Positions 4,207 to 27,663 of a stretch of DNA of 38,688 nucleotides are shown here, piece by piece. The translations under genes were made by a program, and so were the position numbers. The notes under the pieces are model-generated. The model was not told where the DNA came from, did not search any database, and was given only the letters and a program-made list of their open reading frames with translations. Numbering within the stretch: position 1 is the stretch's first letter; every line of letters starts with the position of its first letter. This DNA is from a virus (Duplodnaviria > Heunggongvirae > Uroviricota > Caudoviricetes). The stretch lies in IMG/VR virus record IMGVR_UViG_2703718837_000002. One strand, given 5' to 3'.

Positions 4207-7194
4207 ATGAGCTTAAGCGATCAGGTGGTAATGGCCACCAGCATAGAAACGCTGATCGAGCTGCTAAAAAACCTGCCCGATTTCGGGCGGGTTTCGTATG
4301 TGGTGACAGCGAAGGGTGACGAGGTAAAAACAGCGTTTGATATCGTCGATGCCTCGGCTCTTTTGGTATCCAATACTCTGGACGGGAAAATTAACCCTGA
4401 CTATCCCCAGGAACTTCAGCCGCGCGACCGGACCCGCGCATCCAGCCTTCTTCAGGTTAACCAGATATCCAAGGATTTGCGGCCAGCTCAGCTTACCGAT
4501 TCCGGTTTATCCAGCCATGGCGCGCCGATAATTGGCGAGGACAATGCCGTTGAGTCAGGTAATGGGCGGACCATGGGGATCATTAAAGCCTATCAGGACG
4601 GTAATGCGGATCGGTATCGGGAGTACCTGATTGAACATGCGACCGAATTCGGCATACGGCCTGAAAAGGTTGAATCAATGACGGCTCCGGTACTGGTGCG
4701 CCGCCGGTTAACTAAGGTTGACCGCGTTCAGTTTGCCAAGGACTCAAATATTTCTGATCTTCAGGAAATGGCAGCCAGTGAAAAGGCTTTTGTTGATGCC
4801 GACAGCATAACACCGGCGATGATGGCGTTGTTTAACCCGTCAGAAAGCGGAGATCTGCTTAGCCGCAGTAATGACGCGTTTATTCGCGGATTCATGACGC
4901 AAGTTGGTGCCACACAGGCTGCTGGCCTTGTAACGGAAGATGGGCGACCAACACGGCAACTTGTAGACCGTATACAAAACGCGATCTTTGCCAAGGCATA
5001 TAAGGATGCGCGCCTGGTAAGGATGGTTGCAGAAGAACCTGATCCGGATATGCGTAATGTTCTGACGGCGCTTAATGCGGCGGCCAATGATTTTGTCCAG
5101 ATGCAGGCTTTATCAGGAGAAGCGCACAAGCAGGCTGTGACAACTATCGTTGATGGTATTGAAACAGCGGATAGCCTCGATAAAAAGGCGCTGGCGGCAT
5201 TGAAAGATGCGGTAGACCTGGTAAGGCAATCGAAGGAGTCAGGCCAACATATTACCGATGTTATTGCTCAGGGGGATATGTTCAGCGAAACAGCCCCGGA
5301 AGTGAAAGCTCTCGCGTTGTTCATCGTCGCGAATAACCGTAGCGCGAAGCGTATGGCCACCGCCTTTAAATTGATGGCTCAACGTATCAATGATGAGTTA
5401 CAGCACCAGGGCCAGGCGCTCGGGGATATGTTTGGCGGCGGCGATGTGTCGTTACAGGATATCCTTCGCCAGGTATCTCAGGAACTGGAAAACGAAGGTA
5501 TGCAAGGGATATCTGGCGGTCTTTTCGAGTCAGCTTCCGGCGGTAGTTACAACGGTGTTGCTCCATATACCAGCTTGCTATTACATCGGGCATCCGGCAT
5601 CAAAGACATTATTCATCTGATCAGGCTGCTATCCCGTACAGATCCCCAGGATGAACAGCTTGTTCAAGTGCTTGCGCATTTTGTTCGAATGCCTGTTGCC
5701 GACGTGAAAAAATGGTGCCGATTATTCGGTATCAGCAATTCGTTACTTCGCGGCTTGTTAAATCACGCATCCTCCCTTGGGCGCGATGGCTTTGACGAGA
5801 TAGCGCAGGCTATAAAAAACGGAGATATGCCACCAGCTATTGACTGGTTTTCCATTCGCCCAACCAGGGTGAAAGCATTCCTTAGCGCGGCGCATTCGGC
5901 ATCACCATTGGCAGAAATGGTTCAGAGGTTGTCGCTCATATTCACAGACCATACCGCGTTGGGTGATCTGACTCTGGACGAGATGAAAGAAGCCTCCATT
6001 CAGTGGTCCGATCAACAAAATGAGGTTAACTCTGACTTCTTGCCAGCATTCAGGAAGGCCGTTAGTAAAGCGGATGATGCCCGTGGAATTCTGAAGGCAT
6101 TTAAGGCATTGCAAAGTCGGGTTAATAAACATGTCGGTGATATCGATGGGGTAACGGCGGAAGGCAGGGATATCCTTAAAGAGCACGGCATAACGCCAGA
6201 GTTTATTGATGAGATCAGGACGGATATGCAGCGTGAGGTCGTATCGTCCCTGCAAATTGTAGCCAGAGCGTTGGCGGATGCTAATCCGAAGAGTGCGGCC
6301 ATTGTTAACCGGGTTATTGGTGATATTGAAGCATCGGAGGGCATGGGGGCGCTGAAACTCTTCCTTTCGCGAGCGTTTAATCCTAACGGCAATATTCTCC
6401 CTGGCATTATTGGTGAGGCTAAAAGGTATGTCAGTGAAGAAGAACTTGAGCAGCTTGACCAACTACTTAAGCGATTCTCATATAACCCGCAGACACGCTG
6501 GCAAATGAATCAGCGAAGTATGGGTTCGGTTCACGAGAAAGTGTTATCTGCCATGAACAGTGCGATCGCAAACTCATCCGTATCTGAAGAAAAAGCTCTT
6601 GAGTGGGCCGACTCTTTTATCACGGAAGAAGTGGAAGAAGCCCGCGCTGGACAGAATGGTGGGATAGACCTGCGCAAGGAACTTGCTGATATTTATCGCC
6701 TGACCGGCGGTAAAATTTCGACCTTATCAAAGGTGGTTCACCACCAGGGAAGGGCATATGCAAATCTTAATGGTGTTGTTGCTGTCAATTTGAACGATGA
6801 AAATGCAAGTGCACTGTGGCACGAGCTGGGTCATCATCTTGAGTACAGTAACCCTGGTTTGTTAGAGAAAGCCCGGTCATTCCTGAAGGCCAATGTTGAA
6901 GGGGATAAGCCATCTTTCGTCAATATCGGTGGGCGTGGCAAGCCTGAATGGTGCTTCAGATCTCGATTGAGTAATATTTATATGGCGAAGGTATACCCGC
7001 CAGCCTCAGTAAGTAACACCGGGAAAATTCGGCAGAAATCACCGACTATTTCCAAAACGTCAGCAACGGAAGTATTCTCTATGGCTCTTCAGTTGTATCA
7101 TGACAAAGAGGCCGCTGCCGCATCACTGATGAATGGTGACGGATTGCTGGAACTGTTATTAGGTGTGGCAAAGGAGCTAAATAATGCAGATTAA
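4207..7194 (+). CDS. ddrB: DdrB-like large protein (995 aa); carries a C-terminal HELGH (HExxH) motif
   Basis: Long ORF in the dar operon; HELGH encoded at 6820-6834; assigned by size and position. Confidence 0.6.
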   Translation: MSLSDQVVMATSIETLIELLKNLPDFGRVSYVVTAKGDEVKTAFDIVDASALLVSNTLDGKINPDYPQELQPRDRTRASSLLQVNQISKDLRPAQLTDSGLSSHGAPIIGEDNAVESGNGRTMGIIKAYQDGNADRYREYLIEHATEFGIRPEKVESMTAPVLVRRRLTKVDRVQFAKDSNISDLQEMAASEKAFVDADSITPAMMALFNPSESGDLLSRSNDAFIRGFMTQVGATQAAGLVTEDGRPTRQLVDRIQNAIFAKAYKDARLVRMVAEEPDPDMRNVLTALNAAANDFVQMQALSGEAHKQAVTTIVDGIETADSLDKKALAALKDAVDLVRQSKESGQHITDVIAQGDMFSETAPEVKALALFIVANNRSAKRMATAFKLMAQRINDELQHQGQALGDMFGGGDVSLQDILRQVSQELENEGMQGISGGLFESASGGSYNGVAPYTSLLLHRASGIKDIIHLIRLLSRTDPQDEQLVQVLAHFVRMPVADVKKWCRLFGISNSLLRGLLNHASSLGRDGFDEIAQAIKNGDMPPAIDWFSIRPTRVKAFLSAAHSASPLAEMVQRLSLIFTDHTALGDLTLDEMKEASIQWSDQQNEVNSDFLPAFRKAVSKADDARGILKAFKALQSRVNKHVGDIDGVTAEGRDILKEHGITPEFIDEIRTDMQREVVSSLQIVARALADANPKSAAIVNRVIGDIEASEGMGALKLFLSRAFNPNGNILPGIIGEAKRYVSEEELEQLDQLLKRFSYNPQTRWQMNQRSMGSVHEKVLSAMNSAIANSSVSEEKALEWADSFITEEVEEARAGQNGGIDLRKELADIYRLTGGKISTLSKVVHHQGRAYANLNGVVAVNLNDENASALWHELGHHLEYSNPGLLEKARSFLKANVEGDKPSFVNIGGRGKPEWCFRSRLSNIYMAKVYPPASVSNTGKIRQKSPTISKTSATEVFSMALQLYHDKEAAAASLMNGDGLLELLLGVAKELNNAD

Positions 7195-15175: not shown

Positions 15176-18100
15176 ATGAACAAGCTATCTATGGGGGTGT
15201 TTCGCTGTTCAAGTGTCAGCGAAATATTGAAATATATTAGGGCAATAACATTTCGCCGAGCGCCGATTAAATACGGCGTGGAAAAGGTGGAAGGCAAAAG
15301 CTATGACCGACTGCGCCGGGAGGCGAATCAGAAGGCGATAGATTTGCTTAATTCGCTGGTGGACGGCGCGACACTGACAGATGAACAGCGCCAGATCCTG
15401 GCTGGGTACACCGGTGAAGGCGGCATTGGCGGGTCCGTCTCCGAATATTACACACCAAAGCCGATCGCTGAAGGTGTCTGGGAGATCATGAAGCTCTACG
15501 GCGCGGACGTAGGTAACACTCTGGAACCATCGGCGGGAACCGGCGTTTTTAATGAGACAAAACCGGTTGGTACGGTGATGACCGCGACTGAGATCAGCAG
15601 TGTTTCCGGTCGTATAAACCAGTTGTTACACCCGGAAGACAGCGTACAGATTTCCCCGTTCGAACAGCTGGCTATAAGCACCCCTAACGATTCATTCGAC
15701 CATGTTGTGGGTAACGTTCCGTTCGGCGGTCGTGATAACACACGCAACATCGATAAGCCTTACGCAGAAGAAACGGACATGGGTTCTTACTTCATGCTCC
15801 GCATGCTGGACAAGATAAAGCCTGGCGGATTCATGTGTGTGATTGTGCCGCCGTCAATTGTTTCAGGTTCAAACATGAAGCGGTTACGCCTGCGCCTATC
15901 CCGTAAAGCTGAATTTCTTGGCGCTCACCGCTTGCCTACCGGTACTTTTGACGCAAACGGGACCAGTACAGTCGTTGATGTGGTGCTGATGCGCAAACAT
16001 CCGGCAGAGATGGCTGAGAAAATCCCCCTGGTGGATGAAAGCACTCTTGAATCGGCAAATGTGCTTTGGCCAACGTTTATTTCTGGCAAGTGGTTTGAAA
16101 AGGACGGCCGCCGGTTTGTTCATGGTACCCAGGAAAAGGGCTTCCAGGGGCGTATTGAGGTTCGTGCCGACGGGCAGATTGATAACCAGGCTCTTAAAGC
16201 GAAGCTGATTCATCGTTTCGAAAGTCGTATCGACTGGTCTTTGCTCGATATGGCTGAACCGTCACCGACCGCAGATGTTGTTGATGAAGGGGAAATGCGC
16301 CTGATTAATGGCGTATGGCAAAAATATGCTGGTGGTCGCTGGATTGAAGCTGATGCTGGTAAGGAGCTTAAGATTGATGCTGCCAGTTATGGCGCGGATA
16401 GCTGGGAGGCTCTTCAGCGTAACCTGACTACAACAGAAGGCCGTCTCGGTATGACATTTACCCAGATGGCAAATGTCCGCGATAAGTACACCACATCAAT
16501 CAGCGACGATATGGTGCAGCTGGTGGACTGGATTAACAGCCAGCCTGAAAAATACCGTGAACGCTTGTATCGCGGGGCGATGATTGGCCGGATGTTAATT
16601 GAATATCAGGATATGAAGGCCGCTGGGCATAGTGCTGAACAAATCGAACAGCAGCGCCTTTCTCTGGTGTCCCGTTTGCAGGCAGAGATTGACCGTTTTG
16701 GTAACCCCGGTCGCGGTCCGATAGCTAAATTATCGGGAAGCGGTGCGCGCGCCTGGTTTGCTTTCCGTGGTGCAATTAAGCTGGATGGCACTATTTCTGA
16801 CGAGCTGACAGGAAAGCTGGTTACGCATGATTCCAGCGCCAGTTATGACTCCACCAGCTATCAGGACACCCTGCGTTATCTCTATAGCGATCTTACCCGC
16901 GATCCAATCCAGCTCGATGATTTCCGCCTTGCGTTTACCGGCGAACTGCCAGCCAGTGATGAAGAGTTGCTTAATTTATTGGCCAGCACCCCTGGTATTG
17001 CGGTTTCACCGTATGGCGGGATTGTTCCGTTCGCCCGCGCCACCAGCGGCGACATTAACGAGATAGTGGCTCCAAAACAGGAATTCCTTGCCACACTCCC
17101 CGACGGTCCAGTAAAGAACAACGTCCTTAATCAGCTGGCAGCGATCGAAGAGAAGCGCATCAAGACGCCAGCAGAGAATATCCGCTTTAAGCTCAATAGC
17201 CGTTGGTTCGACCGCTCCGTCATTCTGGAGTTTTTGCAGGAAAACGGCTATCCGGATCTGCGCTATGTGCAGTCAGTGCAGCTGGAAGGCGACGAAATGG
17301 TTTCTGACACCTATCACGGTGGTGATGGTCTGTTCGTCGGACACCGATACGGTGTCGTCCAGCGCAAGGATAAAGAAACAGGAGAGATCCGCTACGAGTG
17401 GGACCGTAAATCAGGTGAAAACGCGACCGGGTTCCCGGCACAGCTGGAAAAGTATCTCAATGGTGCGCGTATCGGTGGCAAAGATAGCGCGACGGCGAAC
17501 GGCTACCGCGAGCAGATGGCACTGCTTGAGGACCAGTTCAATAAGTGGATCAAGACGCACGATCGCTACGATGAGCTGGTTGCCAAATACAACGATGTGT
17601 TCAATAGCAATATCCCGTATGAACACTCTGGCGATCCGCTTGGGTTGAAGGGATTAAGCGGTAAGCGCCAGCCATTTGATTACCAGAATAGCGAGGTGCG
17701 CCGACTGTCCGAAGATGGGCGCGGCATCCTGGGCTTCGGTACCGGGCTGGGTAAAACCACGACCGCGCTGGCGCTTGAGGCGTTCAACTATGAGAACGGT
17801 CGCTCCACCCGTACTGCTTATGTAGTGCCTAAATCAGTGCTGGAAAACTGGTATTACGAAGCAAAAGAGTTCCTGAGTGAAGAAGCCTTCAGTAACTACT
17901 TGTTCGTTGGACTGGATGTACTAATGGACGGCGATCAGATTCGCCAGGTTCCGGTGCTCGATGAGAACGGTAAACCTGTCCTTGGTGCTGATGGCACTCC
18001 ACTTATGCGCGATGCCCTTAAACTGGCAGATGAAGCCACTATCACGGCGCGTATGAACGCGATCCCGCACTCAAATTACCGTGCAGTCGTGTTTACCAAA

Positions 18101-21100
18101 GAACAATACGCCCGCATTCCGCTACGTGATGACACCGTAGATGAGCATGCACAGGATATGCTTTATGACTTCGTTGCTGCCGGGCGCGTAGCCAGCGCAA
18201 TGGACTCCGACTCCCACCGCAAAGAGGCCGCGCGTCGCCGGGTATTGTCGGAGTATTCAGATACCGGTACCGAAAAAGCAGAGAAGTATCCGTACTTTGA
18301 GGATATGGGCTTCGACAGCGTGATTGCTGACGAAGGCCACAACTACCGCAATAGCTATAAAAATGGTCGCGAAGCGTCACAGCTGGCCTATCTGCCCACC
18401 AGCGCGGTGGCGCAATCGGCGCGAGATATGGCAATCAAAAACGCGTACCTGATGAAAAAGAATGGTGGGCGTGGACCGGTTCTCCTGACTGCAACGCCAG
18501 TCGTTAACACCCCGATCGATGCATACAACATGCTTTCTCATGTTCTGCCGAAGGAATACTGGCAGAAGATGGGGATCTACGGTCCTGATGACTTCGTTAA
18601 ATTCTTCGGCAAGACCAGGCTGGAAACGGTACAGAAAATTAGCGGTGAAGTTGAAGAAAAAATGGCGCTGGTGGGCTTTGAAAACCTTGATGCGCTGCGC
18701 GGTATATTCCATCGCTGGGTAACGCTTAAAACGGCGGAAGACGTTAAGGATACCGTGGAGATCCCGGAGCTGGACGAACACCAGCAGGATGCACCACTTA
18801 CTGAAGAACAACTGGCGGCGTATGAAGAATTGCGTCAGCAGGCGGAAGCGGCGGCCAAAGCCAACAATGGCGTAACGACCTCGGTCAATGAAGACGGCGT
18901 GATTGAGCACGAGAAAGCCCGTCCGATCTTCTCAATAATCAGGGATATGGACCGCGTATGTACTGACATGGACCTGTACTATCGCCGGATCACCTATCGT
19001 TTCCTGCCGGAGTATGCCGATGCGGTGCAGCAGCTGGCGGACAGTTTGCCTAAACAAGCCACCAGCGAAGACGACGACAGTGATGATTCAATCACGCAGC
19101 AATCGCAATACTCCCTGATAGATAAGGGCGAGTTTATTCAGTTGCAGGTTCCGGAAGCGTTCGAGCAGGAAGTGAATAAGCGCCTGGCCAGGTTTGGCAT
19201 TGACGAACAGACCGTAACTCACCCCGTTACGCCCAAATACGCGAAGCTGATTGCCACGCTGAAGGAGTTTTTCCCGGAAGGTAAGCAAATCATCTTCACG
19301 GACGAAAAAACGCAGCACCAGAAGCTCAAGCGCATTATCTGCAATGCTCTTAACCTTGAACCTTCAAAGGTGGGGATCCTGAATGCTCAGACGGTTGCCG
19401 AGGCAGGTAAAACCGGTAAGAAACTGAAAGCGGTTAAACCGCCGAAAGAGTTACCGGATGAACCAACAGATGCACAGATAGCGAAATACAACGAGCAAAT
19501 GGCTCTGTATGACGCCTATATCGCGCAGCAAAATGAAATGTCGTTGGGCGGTCTGGAAAAGATTGCAGCCGACTTCCAGGAGGGCCGGACTCCGATCATC
19601 ATCTGCAACAAAAAGGCAGAGGTGGGTATCAACCTGCATCGAGGAACGACTGACATCCATCATCTGACGTTGCCGTGGACTCCAGCCAGTATCGCACAAC
19701 GTAACGGTCGCGGTGCCCGAGTTGGCTCCAACCGTGCAAGCGTTCGCGTTCACTACTACTGCGGCAAGGGTTCTTTCGATGAATACCGACTGAAGACGCT
19801 GAAGCGTAAAGCAGGCTGGATCTCCGATATCCTCCGTTCAGATAAGTCAGAAATGGAGAACGCCGACGCCAACGATATGATCGAAATGCAGATGTATACC
19901 GCTAAGGATGATGGCGAACGTCTGGCAATGATGCAGGTTCAAATGGATAAGGCGAAAGCCGCGCAACGCGCTCGCCAGAAAGAACAGGCTACTATCGACC
20001 TTCAGAACTACATCAAGGCGCAGCACGCAGCTGGCGAGGATGTGGAGGTACTTACCGCTGAATTAGAGCGAAGCAAAGCGGAACTTGAAAAGACCACCGC
20101 CGACGTCGACAAATTCAAACAAGCAGCAATGGCCAAAGCAGCTGATAACGCAGACTGGAAGGCACGTTGGGGGAGTGTCCATAACGCTGACCGTATGTTG
20201 TTAGCTCGATATCGCGCTTCGTTAAAAAATGCTATTCAACAGAAGGCTAATATCTCTCAAGCCATCTCCCGCTATGAGAAATTATTGAACCGTACCCAGA
20301 AGGCCGCGACGGATATCAAACGCCTGCGCCCGCTGGTGGAGGATGCAATAAATAAAGGCATTCTGGATGTTGATCCTGACCTGGTTAACCATGCGAGTGA
20401 GTTCCTTGTTATCGGCGATCGCTCATGGCGTGTAGGCCAATACTATGATTGTGCCGGTGATATCGTCCGCATTAAGTCTCTGGACTTCGACAGCCAGCGC
20501 GCAGACGTGGAGATCATCTTTACCTTCAAAGGCACAAAATCTGGTAACTGGGATGTGAAGACGCTGGATAAACAGGTGGATGTAACTCCCGATGAAGATG
20601 CTGTTATGCAGAAAATCAGTGGTGGCGTCTCCATCGCCGGGATTAACGACATCATTTCCTGTGACGATTTCTACCGTTTCCAGCAGCGCGGCATGATCAA
20701 AATCACTGACTCGTACGGCGTTCAGACTACAGAGTCAGGCTATAGCATTGATTTTGTTGGTACCTATACGGACCCACTGAAGCATGCGGTTTACCCGGAT
20801 CGCCGTGACGGCGCGCTGAAGTCGTCAATTGCAAAATGGGTGCTTGGTATGATGTCTGAAGGGAATAACCGCCAGGTCCGTTTGGCAGAAGTATTCCTGA
20901 CTGAACTGTTTGGCTCCAATTATGGCGATGTAATCGCGTCATATGGAGATACGCTATCCCCTGAAGCAATTCAGGAGAAAATAGCGGATGCGATCGCCAG
21001 AATGCCGGAGAAAACAAGCCAGGGGGCTACTCGTAACGGGGATTCTGAACTTGAGGTCACCAATGCCATTTTCGGTACCCATGAGTTCCGGGCGTCAGAT

Positions 21101-21943
21101 TATGAGATCACCACAGCACAGTTTGGCACCATTGGCATTTACAGCAATAAAGACGAGATCAAGCAGGCAATGGACGCAGCAAGCGCGCGCATCGCAGCAG
21201 AACGGGAAGCCAATCTGAATCATGCAGTCGCCGCGCTGACTCAATCGTGGGTAACAGCAATCAGGGAGGCCGCCACCACAGGGAAAATCACACCGGCAAT
21301 TGCGGATGTCGTAAACGACGGCTCTAAATTTATGGATGCCTATCAAATGGATGCGGTGCAGTTGCCATCAGCCTATGGCCAACTCAGCTATCGCATGACC
21401 TACAATCTGGTATCAATGTTTTCCGACCTTGCCATCCTTGGGCTGGTGGACCTTAACGAGGTTACGCCGGAATTGCTCAGCATTCGCAATAATCATGTGG
21501 AGATATTGCACAGAATTAACACGGTACTTGCCGGGCGCACCGATGAAGAAAAACAGGCAGACGCTGATCGGATAAACCTGGCCCTAGGCAACATCACGGA
21601 GGAAGAAATTGCCGCCAGAAACGAGAAACAAGAAGAGTTATCATCAATACAGGGTGATGCCACCAGCATAGCTCAGTCTCTTGGTCTGAATTATCGCGTA
21701 TCCACCGCCGACCTGAAGATGATGTACGCACCAAAATTCGCCGCTGGCGAGGTATTTGGGCTTCAGGAGGCGTCCGGCATGAAAGGCATTCTTTTCCGTG
21801 CGAAAGACGCAATCAAGGAAAAATTCGGCGCTCGCTGGCTGCCAGCGAAGGCGAAGAACAGCGATTTCCCAGGCAACTGGTGGATTATCGAGACAAAACA
21901 CAACGTGGCGGACGTTCTGGCCGTCATCCAACAATACGCATAA
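15176..21943 (+). CDS. darB: DarB, giant anti-restriction protein (2255 aa): N6-adenine methyltransferase-like N-terminus plus SF2 helicase core
   Basis: NVPF (NPPF-type motif IV) at 15713-15724; Walker A GTGLGKTT near 17748-17771; DEGH motif II at 18329-18340; length matches P1 DarB. Confidence 0.85.
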   Translation: MNKLSMGVFRCSSVSEILKYIRAITFRRAPIKYGVEKVEGKSYDRLRREANQKAIDLLNSLVDGATLTDEQRQILAGYTGEGGIGGSVSEYYTPKPIAEGVWEIMKLYGADVGNTLEPSAGTGVFNETKPVGTVMTATEISSVSGRINQLLHPEDSVQISPFEQLAISTPNDSFDHVVGNVPFGGRDNTRNIDKPYAEETDMGSYFMLRMLDKIKPGGFMCVIVPPSIVSGSNMKRLRLRLSRKAEFLGAHRLPTGTFDANGTSTVVDVVLMRKHPAEMAEKIPLVDESTLESANVLWPTFISGKWFEKDGRRFVHGTQEKGFQGRIEVRADGQIDNQALKAKLIHRFESRIDWSLLDMAEPSPTADVVDEGEMRLINGVWQKYAGGRWIEADAGKELKIDAASYGADSWEALQRNLTTTEGRLGMTFTQMANVRDKYTTSISDDMVQLVDWINSQPEKYRERLYRGAMIGRMLIEYQDMKAAGHSAEQIEQQRLSLVSRLQAEIDRFGNPGRGPIAKLSGSGARAWFAFRGAIKLDGTISDELTGKLVTHDSSASYDSTSYQDTLRYLYSDLTRDPIQLDDFRLAFTGELPASDEELLNLLASTPGIAVSPYGGIVPFARATSGDINEIVAPKQEFLATLPDGPVKNNVLNQLAAIEEKRIKTPAENIRFKLNSRWFDRSVILEFLQENGYPDLRYVQSVQLEGDEMVSDTYHGGDGLFVGHRYGVVQRKDKETGEIRYEWDRKSGENATGFPAQLEKYLNGARIGGKDSATANGYREQMALLEDQFNKWIKTHDRYDELVAKYNDVFNSNIPYEHSGDPLGLKGLSGKRQPFDYQNSEVRRLSEDGRGILGFGTGLGKTTTALALEAFNYENGRSTRTAYVVPKSVLENWYYEAKEFLSEEAFSNYLFVGLDVLMDGDQIRQVPVLDENGKPVLGADGTPLMRDALKLADEATITARMNAIPHSNYRAVVFTKEQYARIPLRDDTVDEHAQDMLYDFVAAGRVASAMDSDSHRKEAARRRVLSEYSDTGTEKAEKYPYFEDMGFDSVIADEGHNYRNSYKNGREASQLAYLPTSAVAQSARDMAIKNAYLMKKNGGRGPVLLTATPVVNTPIDAYNMLSHVLPKEYWQKMGIYGPDDFVKFFGKTRLETVQKISGEVEEKMALVGFENLDALRGIFHRWVTLKTAEDVKDTVEIPELDEHQQDAPLTEEQLAAYEELRQQAEAAAKANNGVTTSVNEDGVIEHEKARPIFSIIRDMDRVCTDMDLYYRRITYRFLPEYADAVQQLADSLPKQATSEDDDSDDSITQQSQYSLIDKGEFIQLQVPEAFEQEVNKRLARFGIDEQTVTHPVTPKYAKLIATLKEFFPEGKQIIFTDEKTQHQKLKRIICNALNLEPSKVGILNAQTVAEAGKTGKKLKAVKPPKELPDEPTDAQIAKYNEQMALYDAYIAQQNEMSLGGLEKIAADFQEGRTPIIICNKKAEVGINLHRGTTDIHHLTLPWTPASIAQRNGRGARVGSNRASVRVHYYCGKGSFDEYRLKTLKRKAGWISDILRSDKSEMENADANDMIEMQMYTAKDDGERLAMMQVQMDKAKAAQRARQKEQATIDLQNYIKAQHAAGEDVEVLTAELERSKAELEKTTADVDKFKQAAMAKAADNADWKARWGSVHNADRMLLARYRASLKNAIQQKANISQAISRYEKLLNRTQKAATDIKRLRPLVEDAINKGILDVDPDLVNHASEFLVIGDRSWRVGQYYDCAGDIVRIKSLDFDSQRADVEIIFTFKGTKSGNWDVKTLDKQVDVTPDEDAVMQKISGGVSIAGINDIISCDDFYRFQQRGMIKITDSYGVQTTESGYSIDFVGTYTDPLKHAVYPDRRDGALKSSIAKWVLGMMSEGNNRQVRLAEVFLTELFGSNYGDVIASYGDTLSPEAIQEKIADAIARMPEKTSQGATRNGDSELEVTNAIFGTHEFRASDYEITTAQFGTIGIYSNKDEIKQAMDAASARIAAEREANLNHAVAALTQSWVTAIREAATTGKITPAIADVVNDGSKFMDAYQMDAVQLPSAYGQLSYRMTYNLVSMFSDLAILGLVDLNEVTPELLSIRNNHVEILHRINTVLAGRTDEEKQADADRINLALGNITEEEIAARNEKQEELSSIQGDATSIAQSLGLNYRVSTADLKMMYAPKFAAGEVFGLQEASGMKGILFRAKDAIKEKFGARWLPAKAKNSDFPGNWWIIETKHNVADVLAVIQQYA

Positions 21944-21976
21944 CAGGAGCGCCCGGTTCGCCGGGCGTCGCATAAT

Positions 21977-22417
21977 ATGGCCACACTATCTGATACAATA
22001 AAACCGAATAAAACATATCTTGAGGCGGTACTCCGTACAGCGTTGTTAGGAAAGACAGAAGACGAATACGTTGATTTCTTCCTGTCAGGGCTACGCGGGC
22101 GATTACTGAAAAATCCCCGCCTGTACCGCAGCTATGGTCCATACTGGCCGGAAATTAAAAAATTATTACTGGAGCGCGGTTATGGTAATTTCGGTCGTCT
22201 CGTTGACCGTGACGTTCGCAAAATTTATCGTTATGACCGCCCGGCGCTAACACTCATAGCCGCGACGCTCTACAGCCAGGAGCGTTTTGATAATGGTCAG
22301 ATATACTCAGCCTGGCATTTACTGCCAGTGCCTGAAGAAGTTGACGACCAGGACTATGAGTTTGAGTCTTACGATTTGGAAGTTGAAGCCTTGGCACAGG
22401 CTGGAGAGAAAACTTGA
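21977..22417 (+). CDS. ulx: Ulx-like protein (146 aa)
   Basis: Immediately downstream of darB; by position. Confidence 0.5.
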   Translation: MATLSDTIKPNKTYLEAVLRTALLGKTEDEYVDFFLSGLRGRLLKNPRLYRSYGPYWPEIKKLLLERGYGNFGRLVDRDVRKIYRYDRPALTLIAATLYSQERFDNGQIYSAWHLLPVPEEVDDQDYEFESYDLEVEALAQAGEKT

Positions 22418-22662
22418 AAAAGCGATACTACACAGTAAAGCATGGGACGCTACGAGCATTACAAGAGTTTGCTGACAAGCATAACGTTGAGGTGCGCAGG
22501 GAAGGGGGAAGTAAAGCTCTGCGCATGTACCGTCCGGACGGGAAATGGCGTACGGTCGTCGATTTCAAAACTAACAGTGTTCCCCAAGGCGTCCGCGATC
22601 GGGCATTCGAAGAATGGGAGCAGATCATCATAGATAACGCATTGCTCCTTAATGCTGATTAA
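22414..22662 (+). CDS. lxc: Lxc-like small protein (82 aa)
   Basis: ATGA overlap with ulx; by position and size. Confidence 0.45.
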   Translation: MKKRYYTVKHGTLRALQEFADKHNVEVRREGGSKALRMYRPDGKWRTVVDFKTNSVPQGVRDRAFEEWEQIIIDNALLLNAD

Positions 22663-22670
22663 TGGTTTTG

Positions 22671-22710
22671 TTTCCCGGTATCGTATTATACCGGGAAATA
22701 TCTTTTTATA
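22671..22710 (+). terminator. Intrinsic terminator closing darB-ulx-lxc
   Basis: Stem TTTCCCGGTAT/ATACCGGGAAA with 6-nt loop followed by TATCTTTTTATA. Confidence 0.65.
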
Positions 22711-23109
22711 TTAACCCGCGGCTGCAATTAGTGCCGACCCAACCGCCAGTGTGGTGACAAGGCCTATAATGACGACTGTAGCTGTTACCCCACCTGCAAC
22801 AGCTGCTCCAGTCTTTGTTTTGGATAACTCTTTCTTTTCTAGAGAAATGATTTCACCCATAGGAATAGACTGGTTGTTAATACCATTGATATATTGTGGG
22901 GTAACGTTCGATACTGTCATTTCACCTTCGCTACCTGATTTTAACTTGTATTTAATTAGGTCACCAGCATATATCGGTGGCTCTGTTAAATAATAGGTAC
23001 TTCTTTCAAGGTTTTTTTGCTTTATGTTAACTCCTTGATAAGACTGACATCCACATAACACAAGTGATAAAATTAGCGTCATCAGTAAATTTCTTTTATT
23101 TTTTATCAT
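22711..23109 (-). CDS. Small envelope protein (about 132 aa): signal peptide with LCGC lipobox-like motif, C-terminal Gly/Ala-rich membrane anchor
   Basis: Strong AAGGAGAAGGAG RBS 8 nt before ATG at 23109 (the track's GTG start at 23118 is less likely); low GC; ends on the lxc terminator. A TTGACA with an imperfect -10 lies upstream. Confidence 0.6.
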   Translation of the reverse strand: MIKNKRNLLMTLILSLVLCGCQSYQGVNIKQKNLERSTYYLTEPPIYAGDLIKYKLKSGSEGEMTVSNVTPQYINGINNQSIPMGEIISLEKKELSKTKTGAAVAGGVTATVVIIGLVTTLAVGSALIAAAG

Positions 23110-23243
23110 TGTCTGCACTCCTTCTCCTTTTCTTTGTATAGCTAAAACAAATCATTTATTCTTGTCAAATAGTTTTTAGTTTGAGAGTGAGGTTTACGTG
23201 ACGATGCTCTAAAAGTTGCAGATAGCGGTAAAGATAATTTTAT

Positions 23244-23912
23244 TTACAATATGTTACCTTTTCCGGTAAGTATACCTTGCGGTACTTTTCTTTCCCCCAT
23301 AAGTTGAGTGGCATGAATGATATTAATAAATGACATTAGTTGTGATGAACTCTGATTCACATTTATCTTTCCAGCCATTGCCCTGATGTAGTCAGCGCTG
23401 GCAACGTTGTTGTATTCCGTTGCGAAGCAGCATAACAACGTCAGAACGTGCTCTGTCGTTATTTCACTCCAGTTGATGTTGAAAAATTCATCGCCTTTTT
23501 TGTCGTGTTCGGAATCGAAGATGCTTTGGTGGAGGATATATTTGCCGGATTCCTTGCGCGGTAACTTTATCGCTTTCTGGCGTTCCAATTCCTTGTAAAT
23601 CTGCATTGCTTCAATCAGTACCGGTCTGCCGTTCATGAAGGGATCACGCAACCTTACACGCTGGCCAACTCGACCGGTAATAAAGCTGTTTTCCTCTTCC
23701 ACCAGCACGATAAAACCCTTTTCCTCTTTTTCTCGCAATTCGCGCAGCAGCTGGAGTTCCATATCGCGGCGGCGCTCAGGGTAGCTGGTCCGCTCAGCCA
23801 TTATCAGCTCATTGTTGATCCATGCAGCAGTCATTGACGCCGGTTTGCCGACGCTCATTGAAACAACGCATATTTTCTTATCCATAGCGCCCCTACAAAA
23901 AAGAAAAGCCAC
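23244..23912 (-). CDS. Hypothetical protein (213-222 aa) with a charged coiled-coil-like segment
   Basis: Maximal ORF; more likely start is MDKKICVV at 23885; no assignable domain; low GC. Confidence 0.5.
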   Translation of the reverse strand: MAFLFCRGAMDKKICVVSMSVGKPASMTAAWINNELIMAERTSYPERRRDMELQLLRELREKEEKGFIVLVEEENSFITGRVGQRVRLRDPFMNGRPVLIEAMQIYKELERQKAIKLPRKESGKYILHQSIFDSEHDKKGDEFFNINWSEITTEHVLTLLCCFATEYNNVASADYIRAMAGKINVNQSSSQLMSFINIIHATQLMGERKVPQGILTGKGNIL

Positions 23913-24144
23913 CAGCGGCGGCTTAGCAAAACAACTGAAGGTAGCGCCCGGTACTCAGACTGTGCCGTCCATGGAATATTTGAAAAGGGATCCATCCGTA
24001 CCGGGCGTGTGATGATTCTGACTCAAGTCACTTGTCAGTTGTCAATTATTTCAGATTAAAAATAATATATTTATTAGTGCATACAATTAAAACAATAAGT
24101 GTGCACATTGCAACCTCGGAGAGGAAACATTCAACCAGATTGTT

Positions 24145-24161
24145 ATTGCTCTAATAAATTT
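24145..24161 (+). promoter_or_regulatory. C1 operator (perfect 17-mer)
   Basis: ATTGCTCTAATAAATTT. Confidence 0.75.
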
Positions 24162-24346
24162 GATTTATTGAAACAAATAAACTACTATTGGACGCCAGAC
24201 TATTGATCTTCCTGTTGTTCAGGCTTATAGTTCCTACGTCATAGCAAATTCTGCGACCGGGTTTAGCAGCCTGAATGTACATGCGGACAACCGCAGATTT
24301 CCGATATTGCGGTATTTTTATGTCCGTAAAACCGCGTTACGCCCGA

Positions 24347-24429
24347 ATTATGGTGGGGCGTGATGGGGAGGCTTCGGCCTGCTGGTTTCATGTACGCCAG
24401 TCTGCTAACCCCGTCACGTCCTGCCACCT
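24347..24429 (+). ncRNA. c4-like antisense RNA (module B); boundaries approximate
   Basis: Same scaffold as A, but core elements CATGTAC (24389-24395) and CTGCTAA (24403-24409) complement GTACATG and TTAGCAG at the B target sites (24262-24283 and 24431-24470). Confidence 0.5.
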
Positions 24430-24478
24430 GTTTAGCAGCGGGTAGCAGGTTGTTAAACCTGTACATGAGGCCGTAACT

Positions 24479-24700
24479 ATGGTTAATGCCAATCCTTGCG
24501 CACGCCCTGAATTTATCTGGCGCTTCTATTCTTGTCAAAAACGTCACTATCACTTCGTTATCGCACCAACAGAAGATGAGGCACGTTCTCAGCTTCCGGA
24601 TGCTCCCTGCATTTTCTCCGCCCGCTTTTCTACCGATTCGCGCAATTCTCTCAGTTACTGGTGCCTCCCTGTTAACGCTTCGGCTCAGGAGGGGCTATGA
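24479..24700 (+). CDS. Icd-like small protein (73 aa)
   Basis: Paralog of the module A icd-like ORF; GAGG RBS overlapped by the antisense target. Confidence 0.6.
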   Translation: MVNANPCARPEFIWRFYSCQKRHYHFVIAPTEDEARSQLPDAPCIFSARFSTDSRNSLSYWCLPVNASAQEGL

Positions 24701-25809
24701 GAACGTCATTAGTCACCCGTGAAGAGATGATCGAGGCAATTGAACAGCACACTGCCTGTATCAGTACCAGGGATATACCAGGTGTTATTGCCAACTACTT
24801 CATGATCACCAAACAACTTTACCGGAGAAAGGACAAGAACGCGGTTCACCGCATTCTGCTAACCGATATCCGTGAATACCTGCTCGAACAGGGTCATCTG
24901 AATTATGCAACCGTCGCAGCCGAAGCACGCAAGGAGGCACACAGAATGAAAGCAACTAACGTTAAATCAGAAAAAATTCATGCACCTTCAGTTCAGGAAT
25001 CAGAGCTGGTGGTTGTTCAGAATCAGCCTGATGAAATTCCCGTTCTGGAATGGCAGGGAGTACGTGTCGTGACAACCGAAACTCTTGCTAGAGGGTATGG
25101 GACCGAAACTAATAACATCAAAGTTAACTATACGCGTAATGCTGATCGCTTTGAGGAAGGTAAACATTACTTTCTACTAACTGGTTCAAAATTAAAAGAA
25201 TTGAAGGACAAGGTTACTCAAAGTAACTTAGTCGCACCGCGAGCAAAGCACCTCACTCTCTGGACGGAACGCGGCGCAGCCCGCCACGCTAAAATGATCG
25301 AAACCGATCAGGCATGGGCATTCTTTGAAAAACTGGAAGACAGCTACTTCCGACAAAAAGAACAGCAACCGGTTGCAATCCCCCAGACGCTTCCAGAAGC
25401 CCTGCGCCTGGCTGCCGAACTGGCTGAACAAAAGCAACTTCTGGAACAGAAAGCCCACCAGCTAAATCAGCAGCTGGTGGCCGCAGCCCCCAAAGTCGAT
25501 TTTGCCGACCGGGTATCAGTGGCCAAGGGGATCCTGATTGGGAATTTTGCAAAGGTTGTTGGACTTAAGCAAAACGCGCTGTTTGCCTGGTTACGGGAGA
25601 ACGGCATCCTGATAGCGTCCGGCGGACGTAAAAATGTGCCGTTCCAGCAATACATCAACGCCGGGTATTTTTCTGTGAAAGAAGTGGTGCTGGATGATGA
25701 AGATGGCTATCAGATACGACTGACGCCCCAGTTAACGGGGAAAGGCCAGCAGTGGTTGACGCGTAAACTGCTCGATGCTGGCTTGTTAAAACCGGTGGCG
25801 GCTGAGTGA
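24697..25809 (+). CDS. Ant-like antirepressor paralog B (370 aa)
   Basis: ATGA-coupled to the icd-like ORF; Bro-N/KilA-C-like architecture. Confidence 0.7.
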   Translation: MRTSLVTREEMIEAIEQHTACISTRDIPGVIANYFMITKQLYRRKDKNAVHRILLTDIREYLLEQGHLNYATVAAEARKEAHRMKATNVKSEKIHAPSVQESELVVVQNQPDEIPVLEWQGVRVVTTETLARGYGTETNNIKVNYTRNADRFEEGKHYFLLTGSKLKELKDKVTQSNLVAPRAKHLTLWTERGAARHAKMIETDQAWAFFEKLEDSYFRQKEQQPVAIPQTLPEALRLAAELAEQKQLLEQKAHQLNQQLVAAAPKVDFADRVSVAKGILIGNFAKVVGLKQNALFAWLRENGILIASGGRKNVPFQQYINAGYFSVKEVVLDDEDGYQIRLTPQLTGKGQQWLTRKLLDAGLLKPVAAE

Positions 25810-25956
25810 TTAAAAAAGGCGGCCTTTCGGCCGCCAATGATGTCACGGAGTCTGTAATAGCAATGTCTTTGTAGTTGACTAATTATATAAATAAATTATA
25901 GCAATTATATGTGGTTTGCTTATCGGGAATCACATTTCCTCACTTCAGTACCTATG

Positions 25957-26043
25957 TGCTATACTCCTTTTTGATTGATTGATTGGATGCGGAACACAAA
26001 CCCGCTCTTTTGTGCAGCCTGGCTCCTTGCCAGGCTTTTTTTA
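25957..26043 (+). ncRNA. Candidate small RNA: extended -10 promoter to intrinsic terminator, about 70 nt
   Basis: TGcTATACT at 25957-25965; terminator stem GCCTGGC/GCCAGGC (26017-26035) plus T7; contains a TTGA x3 tract; 3' end overlaps the convergent 103-aa ORF stop. Confidence 0.3.
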
Positions 26044-26352
26044 TTTCATCATGGAAGCTGTTAACGCTTTGGACCTTGCTGAACTGATTGAAAGGACATT
26101 GTTAACCTTACCCAAGAGTTCGCCAAACTCAGACATCACTTTAGCAAAACCACGCCGTGCTTCTTCCTCGGTGGCATTCATCACGAAATGTTCAGCACTA
26201 CGCATACTTTTGACAGGGAACGCAACGGATATTGAGTCAATATCAGGCATTCTATCGCTCAGCTTTACAGTGACAATGACGGCTGGCGACTGAATATTAG
26301 TGCTTACAGACAGCACTACATATTTTACGTCGATGTTGAAATCCTTTCTCAT
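26041..26352 (-). CDS. Small protein (103 aa) downstream of cre
   Basis: ORF preceded by a C1 operator-like site; function unknown. Confidence 0.45.
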   Translation of the reverse strand: MRKDFNIDVKYVVLSVSTNIQSPAVIVTVKLSDRMPDIDSISVAFPVKSMRSAEHFVMNATEEEARRGFAKVMSEFGELLGKVNNVLSISSARSKALTASMMK

Positions 26353-26368
26353 ATGTCACCATAAATAT

Positions 26369-26385
26369 CAAATAATTAGAGCAAT
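26369..26385 (-). promoter_or_regulatory. C1 operator-like site (3 mismatches)
   Basis: CAAATAATTAGAGCAAT between the cre stop and the 103-aa ORF start. Confidence 0.35.
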
Positions 26386-26402
26386 CATTTGCACGTTAAA
26401 GG

Positions 26403-27434
26403 CTAATCGCCATCTTCCAGCAGGCGCACCATTGCCCCTGTTTCACTATCCAGGTTACGGATATAGTTCATGACAATATTTACGTTGGTCCAGCCACCAG
26501 CTTGCATGATCTCCGGTATTGAAACTCCGGCGCGGGCCATATCTCGCGCGGCTCCGACACGGGCACTGTGTCCAGACCAGGCCAGGTACCTCTGGCCAGA
26601 GTCATCCTTAGCCCCGTAAATCAATCGGTGAATTGCTTCAAAAATCCCTTCCAGGGCGCGAGTTGATAGCTGGCTGGTGGATGATGGCGCGGCAACACCA
26701 TTTTTTCTGACCCGGCAAAACAGGTAGTTATTCGGATCATCAGCTACACCAGAGACAGAAATCCATCGCTCGACCAGTTTAGTTACCCCCAGGCTAAGTG
26801 CCTTCTCTACACCTGCGGTGCTAACCAGCGTTTTCGTTCTGCCAATATGGATTAACATTCTCCCACCGTCAGTACGTGAGATATCTTTAACCCTGATCCT
26901 GGAAATTTCGGCTATACGTAACAGGGTGTTATAAGCAATCCCCAGAAATGCCAGATTACGTATATCCTGGCAGCGATCGCTATTTTCCATGAGTGAACGA
27001 ACCTGGTCGAAATCAGTGCGTTCGAACGCTAGTGCCTGTTTTGCACGTTCACCGGCATCAACGTTTTCTTTTCGGATCCGCCGCATGACCAGTGAAACAG
27101 CATTGCTGTCACTTGGTCGTGGCAGCCCGGACCGACGATGAAGCATGTTTAGCTGGCCCAAATGTTGCTGGATAGTTTTCACAGCCAGACCACGCGCCTG
27201 AAGATATAGAAGGTAATCGCGAACATCTTCAGGTTCTGCGGGAAACCATTTCCGGTTATTCAACTTGCACCATGCCGCCCACGACCGGCAAACGGACAGA
27301 AGCATTTTCCAGGTATGCTCAGAAAACGCCTGGCGATCCCTGAACATGTCCATCAGATTCTTGCGAGCCTCATCACTCGTTGCATCGACCGGTAATGCAG
27401 GCAAATTTTGGTGTACGGTCAGTAAATTGGACAT
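26403..27434 (-). CDS. cre: Cre site-specific tyrosine recombinase (343 aa)
   Basis: Near-identical over full length to Cre as I recall it, with about four substitutions; catalytic region ...RYLAWSGHSARVGAARDMARAG...; loxP 415 bp upstream. Confidence 0.97.
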   Translation of the reverse strand: MSNLLTVHQNLPALPVDATSDEARKNLMDMFRDRQAFSEHTWKMLLSVCRSWAAWCKLNNRKWFPAEPEDVRDYLLYLQARGLAVKTIQQHLGQLNMLHRRSGLPRPSDSNAVSLVMRRIRKENVDAGERAKQALAFERTDFDQVRSLMENSDRCQDIRNLAFLGIAYNTLLRIAEISRIRVKDISRTDGGRMLIHIGRTKTLVSTAGVEKALSLGVTKLVERWISVSGVADDPNNYLFCRVRKNGVAAPSSTSQLSTRALEGIFEAIHRLIYGAKDDSGQRYLAWSGHSARVGAARDMARAGVSIPEIMQAGGWTNVNIVMNYIRNLDSETGAMVRLLEDGD

Positions 27435-27441
27435 TTAACAC

Positions 27442-27663
27442 TCAGATAATGGTTTTAAGTAAAGTGTACAGGATCGGCTCTGCCTTTACCTGTTTATGGT
27501 TCTCGTCATAGAAACGCCAGCGACCGCGCGTGCGTTCTATTTTCTCTTCACCGCGCGATAATGACAGTTGACAACTATCACGATCAAACCCTTTTGCCCG
27601 CCAGTAACCACGGTTTTTCTCAAGCTCAATATGAGTGGACACTTTAGCAGCTGAATATCCCAT
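27442..27663 (-). CDS. Small ORF (73 aa) between loxP and cre; coding status uncertain
   Basis: Same strand as cre and immediately upstream; no recognisable motif. Confidence 0.25.
   Translation of the reverse strand: MGYSAAKVSTHIELEKNRGYWRAKGFDRDSCQLSLSRGEEKIERTRGRWRFYDENHKQVKAEPILYTLLKTII

Follow-up and report, generated by a model that had tools for sequence, protein, structure and literature searches.

Which genes occupy the slot next to lxc in a P1-like phage-plasmid from which the type III restriction-modification (R-M) genes are missing, and what might they do for their carrier? The stretch of DNA analyzed here (the window) is the 38,688-nucleotide Caudoviricetes record IMGVR_UViG_2703718837_000002, which listing of its open reading frames (ORFs), family scans and DNA comparison identify as a P1-like phage-plasmid with its map reversed relative to that of P1. 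A reading made from the letters alone (hereafter, the sequence-only reading) had placed in this slot a cargo pair of AT-rich minus-strand genes, encoding a small envelope protein and a 222-residue unknown with a long leader, and had suggested a superinfection exclusion or other defence function. That observation is partly confirmed and its interpretation partly supported by our analysis: the larger ORF is, by homology, the core P1 gene mat, whereas the smaller is true accessory cargo in a variable slot and encodes a lipoprotein of an unnamed family. We tentatively propose, at a probability of roughly 0.35, that this protein is a solitary, self-associating lipoprotein that alters the barrier properties of the carrier's envelope.

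Both minus-strand ORFs are present as described, at 22711-23118 and 23244-23912 in the ORF listing. The likely start of each differs from the listed one: for the larger it is the ATG at 23885, as annotated in related plasmids, and for the smaller the ATG at 23109, with GTG 23118 as an alternative that would give 135 amino acids (aa).

22711-23109, minus strand: lipoprotein gene, 132 aa from ATG 23109; the 399-nucleotide (nt) coding sequence (CDS) is likewise annotated in related plasmids
23244-23885, minus strand: mat (maturation control), 213 aa from ATG 23885; PHROG 1837

The larger ORF matches PHROG 1837 at E = 6.3e-108 over positions 1-212 of 213, is identical to the P1 Mat protein at 194/218 residues (89%) and is annotated as a 'maturation control protein' in related plasmids, including pEA15_2. 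Its position and orientation beside the ref slot are those of mat in P1. By these comparisons the supposed 222-aa unknown is Mat, a core P1 gene that is neither cargo nor missing; homology to a housekeeping P1 gene, which the sequence-only reading had said would refute it, was found for this half of the pair. The description of both genes as AT-rich fits the lipoprotein gene, with a CDS GC content of 0.38, but not the body of mat, whose P1-like part has a GC content of 0.484 compared with 0.487 for the window. Only the last 126 nt of mat (42 codons, 23244-23369) are low in GC (0.333). This part is recombinant and encodes a Mat C-terminus about 50% identical to that of P1, and among the plasmid records the diverged 3' end was seen only in those that also carry the lipoprotein gene. 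Such strict linkage argues for a joint import by way of a crossover inside mat, the two apparently having been inherited together from a diverged P1-like lineage.

The long leader mentioned in the sequence-only reading proved to be the conserved control region of mat when it was compared base by base with the annotated features of P1.

24015-24083, minus strand: mat control region
24066-24083, minus strand: operator Omat, conserved base for base
24040-24045, minus strand: Pmat -35 element TTGACA, conserved
24025-24033, minus strand: -22 box of the late promoter LPmat, AAGTGACTT
24015-24020, minus strand: mat -10 element CAGAAT, conserved

The LPmat pattern has an exact match at 24015-24033, and the C1 operator and the early and late promoters of mat are all intact as judged from their sequences. 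Twelve matches to the C1 operator consensus with at most three mismatches, compared with 0.22 expected by chance, are spread across the window (9699-34466) and are consistent with an intact P1-type C1 regulon. P1 Mat itself is annotated as a 250-aa protein that starts with MDPFSN and bears a 37-aa N-terminal extension, which is out of frame in the window (23886-23995) because a G4 run stands in place of the G5 run of P1; in related plasmids the annotated length of Mat is 213 aa in some and 250 aa in others. These observations point to the internal ATG at 23885 as the true start of mat, and to the extension in P1 as dispensable or an artefact of annotation. The leader also contains a terminator-like hairpin at 23906-23924 on the minus strand (8 bp, five of them G-C, followed by UUCUUUUUU), about 20 nt upstream of the mat start, which could act as an attenuator for mat and for the downstream lipoprotein gene.

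The extent of the foreign DNA follows from blastn comparison with P1. The window reads darB-ulx-lxc, slot, antirepressor gene and c8-cre, and the P1 reference reads cre-c8-ref-mat-res-mod-lxc-ulx-darB. Three blocks align, namely ulx with lxc (window 21901-22662, P1 10511-9750; 97.8% nucleotide identity), mat (window 23370-24082, P1 3342-2629; 96.9%) and c8 with cre (window 25812-27500, P1 2069-370; 95.8%), and their breakpoints imply two separate substitutions. The first, of 707 bp (22663-23369), stands in place of P1 3343-9749, which comprises the mat 3' end, res, mod and IS5; the second, of 1.7 kb (24083-25811), stands in place of ref. The absence of P1 genes from the slot is thus real for res and mod, both of which P1 has between lxc and the next module, but not for mat. 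On the lxc side the P1 homology ends exactly at the lxc stop codon, and the cassette, to judge from its boundaries, was brought in by recombination, with one junction within mat and the other where lxc ends.

22663-23369: foreign low-GC cassette, 707 bp, with breakpoints set by blastn against P1; GC 0.361 versus 0.487 for the window
22669-22700: hairpin (about 11-13 bp) where the lxc and lipoprotein genes converge
23110-23243, minus strand: spacer between mat and the lipoprotein gene, 134 nt
23118-23129, minus strand: Shine-Dalgarno region AAGGAGAAGGAG, conserved in all six alleles compared

The cassette contains the recombinant mat 3' end, the spacer (GC 0.33), the 132-aa lipoprotein gene and the hairpin; by sequence content, the lipoprotein gene is its sole foreign gene. 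Comparison of the window allele with five plasmid alleles from Escherichia albertii gave a ratio of nonsynonymous to synonymous change (dN/dS) of 0.02-0.10 at dS up to 0.22. This ratio, together with some 110 homologous clusters of the same full-length architecture, indicates that the gene is real and under strong purifying selection.

The last GGAG of the strong Shine-Dalgarno region lies 8 nt upstream of ATG 23109. As for transcription of the lipoprotein gene, a promoter and terminator scan of the minus strand of the spacer was empty, and the spacer RNA folds no better than shuffled sequences (z = +1.47). A sigma-70 promoter belonging to the gene was considered and set aside, as the alignment of six alleles has a conserved -35 (TTGACA, 23163-23168) with no usable -10 in the spacer; a late promoter of its own was likewise rejected after a search of the spacer for the LPmat box came back empty, and a terminator between mat and the lipoprotein gene was found neither by scan nor by RNA fold. 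Because the spacer lacks a terminator and any scan-detectable promoter, and because LPmat and Pmat are intact, the simplest reading is that transcripts of mat, begun at Pmat (under C1 control) and at the late LPmat, run on through the gene, although a weak promoter of its own is possible. The hairpin at the other end of the gene is stable (-21.6 kcal/mol, z = -3.7) and is followed by a T-run on the plus strand only; lxc thus has a clear terminator here, whereas transcripts of the lipoprotein gene would at best be terminated weakly.

23047-23109, minus strand: predicted signal peptide (aa 1-20) and lipidated Cys21; lipobox L-C-G/C, with the slash at the cut and Gln as the +2 residue
22825-23046, minus strand: predicted mature periplasmic domain (aa 22-95), an all-beta Sm/SH3-like barrel with the motif G-D-x-[IV]-x-Y-x-L-x-x-G
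22714-22824, minus strand: Lys-rich collar EKKELSKTKT (aa 91-100, its start overlapping the end of the barrel), then the 33-aa uncharged Gly/Ala-rich tail

The envelope features noticed in the sequence-only reading hold as predictions. An n-region (KNKR) and a hydrophobic core lead to the LCG/C site, which satisfies the PROSITE lipobox rule, and the mature protein has no further Cys. The Gly/Ala-rich tail forms the C-terminal end and is composed of G, A, S or T at 64% of its positions. It is marginally hydrophobic, with a Hessa-scale sum of -0.9 (family median, -0.7) compared with -3.7 for the transmembrane domain of phage T1 gp11, and by inspection it carries the small-xxx-small repeats A102-G106-A110, G116-T120-G124 and A122-A126-A130.

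These features are shared by a family that has so far gone without a name. Only five related clusters came up when 5.8 billion proteins were searched through a word index; when 1.84 billion representatives were searched exhaustively with HMMER at a cut-off of E <= 1e-3, there were 110 representative clusters, nearly all of 115-140 aa and aligning end to end. Two huge repeat proteins among the HMMER matches, P0007 and P0025, are SpaA/DUF11-type adhesins that share only a short beta-hairpin motif and were rejected as non-homologous. Across the family Cys21 is invariant, Gly at -1 is nearly so, and the +2 residue is T, S, H or Q, never Asp; the PROSITE lipobox rule is satisfied by 82 of the 107 small members. 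A motif E-K-K-E-x-S-x-x-K-T precedes an uncharged segment with a median length of 25 aa (33 aa in the window protein), about half of which is Gly, Ala, Ser or Thr. There are on average 2.7 K/R residues in the 10 aa before this segment and 0.26 after it, where a median of one residue follows. No Pfam family matched the lipoprotein at E <= 0.1 and no PHROG at E <= 0.01; NCBIfam gave no match, the defence models of PADLOC-DB 2.0 gave none at E <= 1 for the lipoprotein or for Mat, and a tblastn search of 50,697 phage records found no homolog (best E = 2). Against PDB sequences the family profile gave noise at the level of signal peptides, such as BamE at E of about 0.2. By its sequence, then, the protein is a member of an unnamed, uncharacterised family with an unusual architecture that combines a lipid anchor, a small beta-barrel, a basic collar and a Gly/Ala-rich tail.

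The order of these parts recalls the unimolecular spanin (u-spanin) gp11 of T1, and the lipoprotein might be a lysis accessory of that kind, with its lipid in the outer membrane, its C-terminal helix in the inner membrane, and a beta domain that collapses as the lytic cycle ends and fuses both membranes, the protein being made from the late promoter of mat. Its outline fits the published definition (PMC6139136) of an outer-membrane-type lipobox, a beta-rich Cys-free periplasmic part and a C-terminal hydrophobic segment: the N-terminal outer-membrane lipoprotein signal is found and the Cys-free beta-rich domain is predicted. The length is nearly equal (132 aa versus 133 aa for gp11), and the gene belongs to the same transcription unit as a late promoter, from which no terminator separates it. 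However, homology to gp11 was rejected, as hhalign gave a probability of 20% that covered the signal peptide only, and there is no other sequence similarity. The transmembrane domain of gp11 is strongly hydrophobic and is followed by the basic cytoplasmic end RKHEKKEA, whereas the tail of the lipoprotein is Gly/Ala-rich, marginal and uncharged to its end. The predicted barrel is compact with very short linkers, and 13 of 104 family members have a periplasmic Cys. None of the contexts includes a lysis cassette (the neighbours in the window are mat and lxc), the family lies outside phages, being absent from the phage records and from all PHROGs, and P1 already has the predicted spanin genes ppfA and mlp (PMC9025707). 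Taken together, these observations make a spanin-like role very unlikely.

AlphaFold2 folds residues 22-95 into a seven-stranded small barrel, with pLDDT (the per-residue confidence score) of 83-95 when a deeper alignment is supplied. In this model the mature domain is confidently a small Sm/SH3-like beta-barrel. Foldseek gave no match at E <= 1e-3 against the PDB or against viral models; the best fold matches include Sm/Hfq-type barrels and the beta-domain of MscS. Since these are ring formers, and since the tail has small-xxx-small faces, one could imagine an Sm-like ring carrying a glycine-zipper pore, that is, a membrane-permeabilising effector that would act when triggered as an abortive-infection protein, a holin-like killer or a toxin. 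Single family members give weak, sub-threshold Pfam hints to MS_channel_2nd and to a holin family (E 0.01-0.04), and the slot carries defence genes in related elements (bioRxiv 10.1101/2025.09.12.675607). Against such an effector stand the lack of an antitoxin, sensor or regulator partner in any context, the lack of a PADLOC match, and stable carriage on many plasmids and one chromosome, which is hard to reconcile with an unregulated killer. We give this possibility only a slim chance.

The distribution of the gene bears on whether it serves the phage. Some part of the query matched 602 plasmid records; 24 of these contain the cassette, and all 24 are P1-like plasmids of E. albertii, at 95-96.5% nucleotide identity. 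The cassette is present in 0 of 5,426 complete Escherichia coli genomes, although some draft assemblies labelled E. coli do carry it. In every P1-like copy the lipoprotein gene lies directly after mat and before lxc, and what surrounds this unit varies. In pEA15_2 the gene lies between an intact type III res and mat, with res and mod both present; in p2RM9976 it stands alongside ref; in other P1-like copies the neighbouring slot holds a 151-aa gene or a c4/icd/ant module. The neighbouring slots thus vary independently of the lipoprotein gene, which marks it as an independent module rather than an R-M substitute. The comparison across P1-like plasmids bears out the accessory slot of the sequence-only reading, but not a strict replacement of res and mod, which we rejected given their coexistence with the gene in pEA15_2. 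In pEA15_2 (NZ_CP117656.1) the interval that separates the lipoprotein gene from the stop codon of res includes, at 4963-5063, a copy of the final ~100 bp of lxc. This fragment suggests that the type III R-M genes recombined into a backbone in which lxc, the lipoprotein gene and mat were already adjacent.

One rival, taken from the sequence-only reading, is specific superinfection exclusion. By binding some component of the host envelope that particular phages need to adsorb or to bring in their DNA, or that conjugative DNA entry requires, the lipoprotein would protect the P1-like lysogen or a cell under lytic infection. Prophage and plasmid lipoproteins such as Cor, Llp and TraT act in exclusion. 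Like these and Bor/Iss, the protein is a predicted small exported lipoprotein encoded by a single accessory gene of a temperate phage or plasmid, and no partner would be needed. It is cargo of the variable mat-lxc slot, which otherwise holds type III R-M genes, it is under strong purifying selection, and its family, like TraT, also occurs on conjugative and F-type plasmids. It is nevertheless unrelated to them in sequence and family and has an extra C-terminal membrane segment: none of the Cor, Llp, Bor/Iss or TraT families is among those listed for 24 family members at E <= 1, and the Pfam and PHROG searches, which together with PADLOC gave no match, would cover Cor, Llp, Bor and TraT if these are modelled there. 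The receptor of P1 is the lipopolysaccharide core, which could not be masked by a lipoprotein facing the periplasm. The lack of a homolog in the 50,697 phage genomes, and the occurrence of some family members on chromosomes or islands without a phage link, also speak against exclusion, which we consider unlikely.

More distant relatives, at 27-55% identity, occur in unrelated settings. One lies on an E. coli contig flanked by insertion sequences (IS), apparently an island, after an AIDA-type autotransporter gene; relatives in Salmonella (27-30% identical) lie in IS-rich islands with fimbrial usher and ArtA/pertussis-like toxin genes. On IncF plasmids of E. albertii a relative stands beside virK-lpxM-glycosyltransferase-deacetylase, on conjugative Serratia plasmids near rep and toxin-antitoxin genes, and in an Erwinia chromosome between copA and cueR, the last being a single locus by contig scan and closer alignment. 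No partner gene is conserved across these contexts, which span P1-like, F-type and conjugative plasmids, islands and a chromosome. The absence of the family from phage records, together with its presence on non-phage plasmids, islands and one chromosome, points to a general envelope role over a phage-specific one.

Based on the above data, we propose that the lipoprotein acts alone on the envelope of its carrier. The precursor would be exported by Sec and cut before Cys21 (LCG/C), Cys21 would be lipidated, and the protein would probably be sorted by Lol, since it has no Asp at +2. Residues 22-95 would then form the compact Sm/SH3-like barrel in the periplasm, with the Lys-rich collar resting on phospholipid head groups. 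The tail, being Gly/Ala-rich, marginally hydrophobic and free of cytoplasmic charges, would dip into the same membrane, such that both ends of the protein are held in one membrane; its marginal hydrophobicity (-0.9 versus -3.7) and the reversed charge distribution argue against a classical inner-membrane anchor and fit same-membrane insertion better. Self-association would be driven by the small-xxx-small faces of the tail. The lipoprotein alone would thereby alter the envelope barrier of its carrier, through membrane stabilisation or resistance to external insults, a change that might extend to keeping foreign DNA out. In the P1-like element the protein would be made at least whenever mat is transcribed.

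The working analogy for this mechanism, though not a family assignment, is provided by the glycine-zipper lipoproteins SlyB and YfgH, which oligomerise in the outer membrane and thereby stabilise it (bioRxiv 10.64898/2025.12.22.696046). Our protein shares with SlyB, YfgH and OsmB (PF05433, PF13488 and PF13441) a lipid anchor, a small periplasmic beta domain and a Gly/Ala-rich membrane segment with small-xxx-small repeats, and by this analogy a stand-alone envelope function is plausible. The order of the parts is reversed, however, with the barrel first and the hydrophobic segment last, and no two-helix hairpin is predicted for the tail. None of the three glycine-zipper Pfam families was found for the whole protein or among the families listed for the 24 members. 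Homology to SlyB was rejected; the SlyB sequence used, run as a control, was itself confirmed by a match to PF05433.

Several observations weigh against the proposed barrier role. The isolated tail matches no Pfam glycine-zipper model even at E <= 10, and hhalign aligned the family profile with SlyB only within the signal peptide, at a probability of 0.75%. In the AlphaFold2 model the tail helix (97-131) has a low pLDDT of 42-51. Were the mat promoters, which C1 represses, the only source of expression, lysogens would contain little of the protein, a poor fit with lysogenic conversion. Nor are all relatives clearly solitary. In the Salmonella group a divergently transcribed Dabb-domain gene and a major facilitator superfamily (MFS) transporter gene are kept immediately upstream, and this pair may be a conserved local association. 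A relative on a Joint Genome Institute (JGI) metagenome contig (positions 5001-6422) is followed by two small co-oriented ORFs of 136 and 207 aa, neither with a Pfam match; the first abuts its stop codon, and upstream lies a gene for a 609-aa regulator with OmpR-type (Trans_reg_C) and TPR domains. This copy is possibly part of an operon, unlike the solitary enterobacterial copies. The envelope and virulence genes that neighbour other relatives are, for their part, weak evidence by association.

A more far-reaching proposal is that the family represents a new class of single-gene envelope systems on mobile elements, in which an Sm-like periplasmic ring, anchored in the membrane at one end by lipid and at the other by a glycine-zipper helix, either blocks the entry of phage or plasmid DNA or acts as a second, structurally distinct type of unimolecular membrane-fusing lysis protein. 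We regard this as quite improbable.

The remaining features of the region are those of the P1 backbone and of the module that replaces ref.

15176-21943, plus strand: darB
21977-22417, plus strand: ulx
22414-22662, plus strand: lxc (C1 modulator), PHROG 2160 and P1 annotation; the final P1-backbone gene ahead of the slot
24083-25811, plus strand: module replacing ref, immI-type, not part of the lipoprotein cassette
24145-24161: perfect C1 operator, from the operator search
24225-24277: c4 a1/b1 targets
24346-24431: C4 antisense RNA, Rfam, 70.8 bits
24479-24700: icd-like ORF
24697-25809, plus strand: Ant-type antirepressor, 370 aa; Pfam ANT and ORF6N, PHROG 63
26041-26352, minus strand: c8
26403-27434, minus strand: cre

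The Rfam matches in the module are RF01695 and RF03163. It is 88% identical to the c4 region of P1 and 95% identical to phage vB_EcoM-Ro157c2YLVW.

The analysis corrects the map of this P1-like element, in which mat is retained, only 707 bp beside it are foreign, and ref has been separately replaced by an immunity-type c4/icd/ant module. It also brings to light an unnamed lipoprotein family of about 110 clusters, with a gene under strong selection that stands alone on phage-plasmids, on conjugative and virulence-type plasmids and in enterobacterial islands. If the lipoprotein has no measurable effect, its gene would be one more hypothetical accessory gene. If a barrier or exclusion effect is true, the lipoprotein would add a new and compact factor of lysogenic conversion to E. 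albertii, a species whose isolates from a surveillance collection in the UK have P1-like elements in about 41% of cases (bioRxiv 10.1101/2025.09.12.675607).

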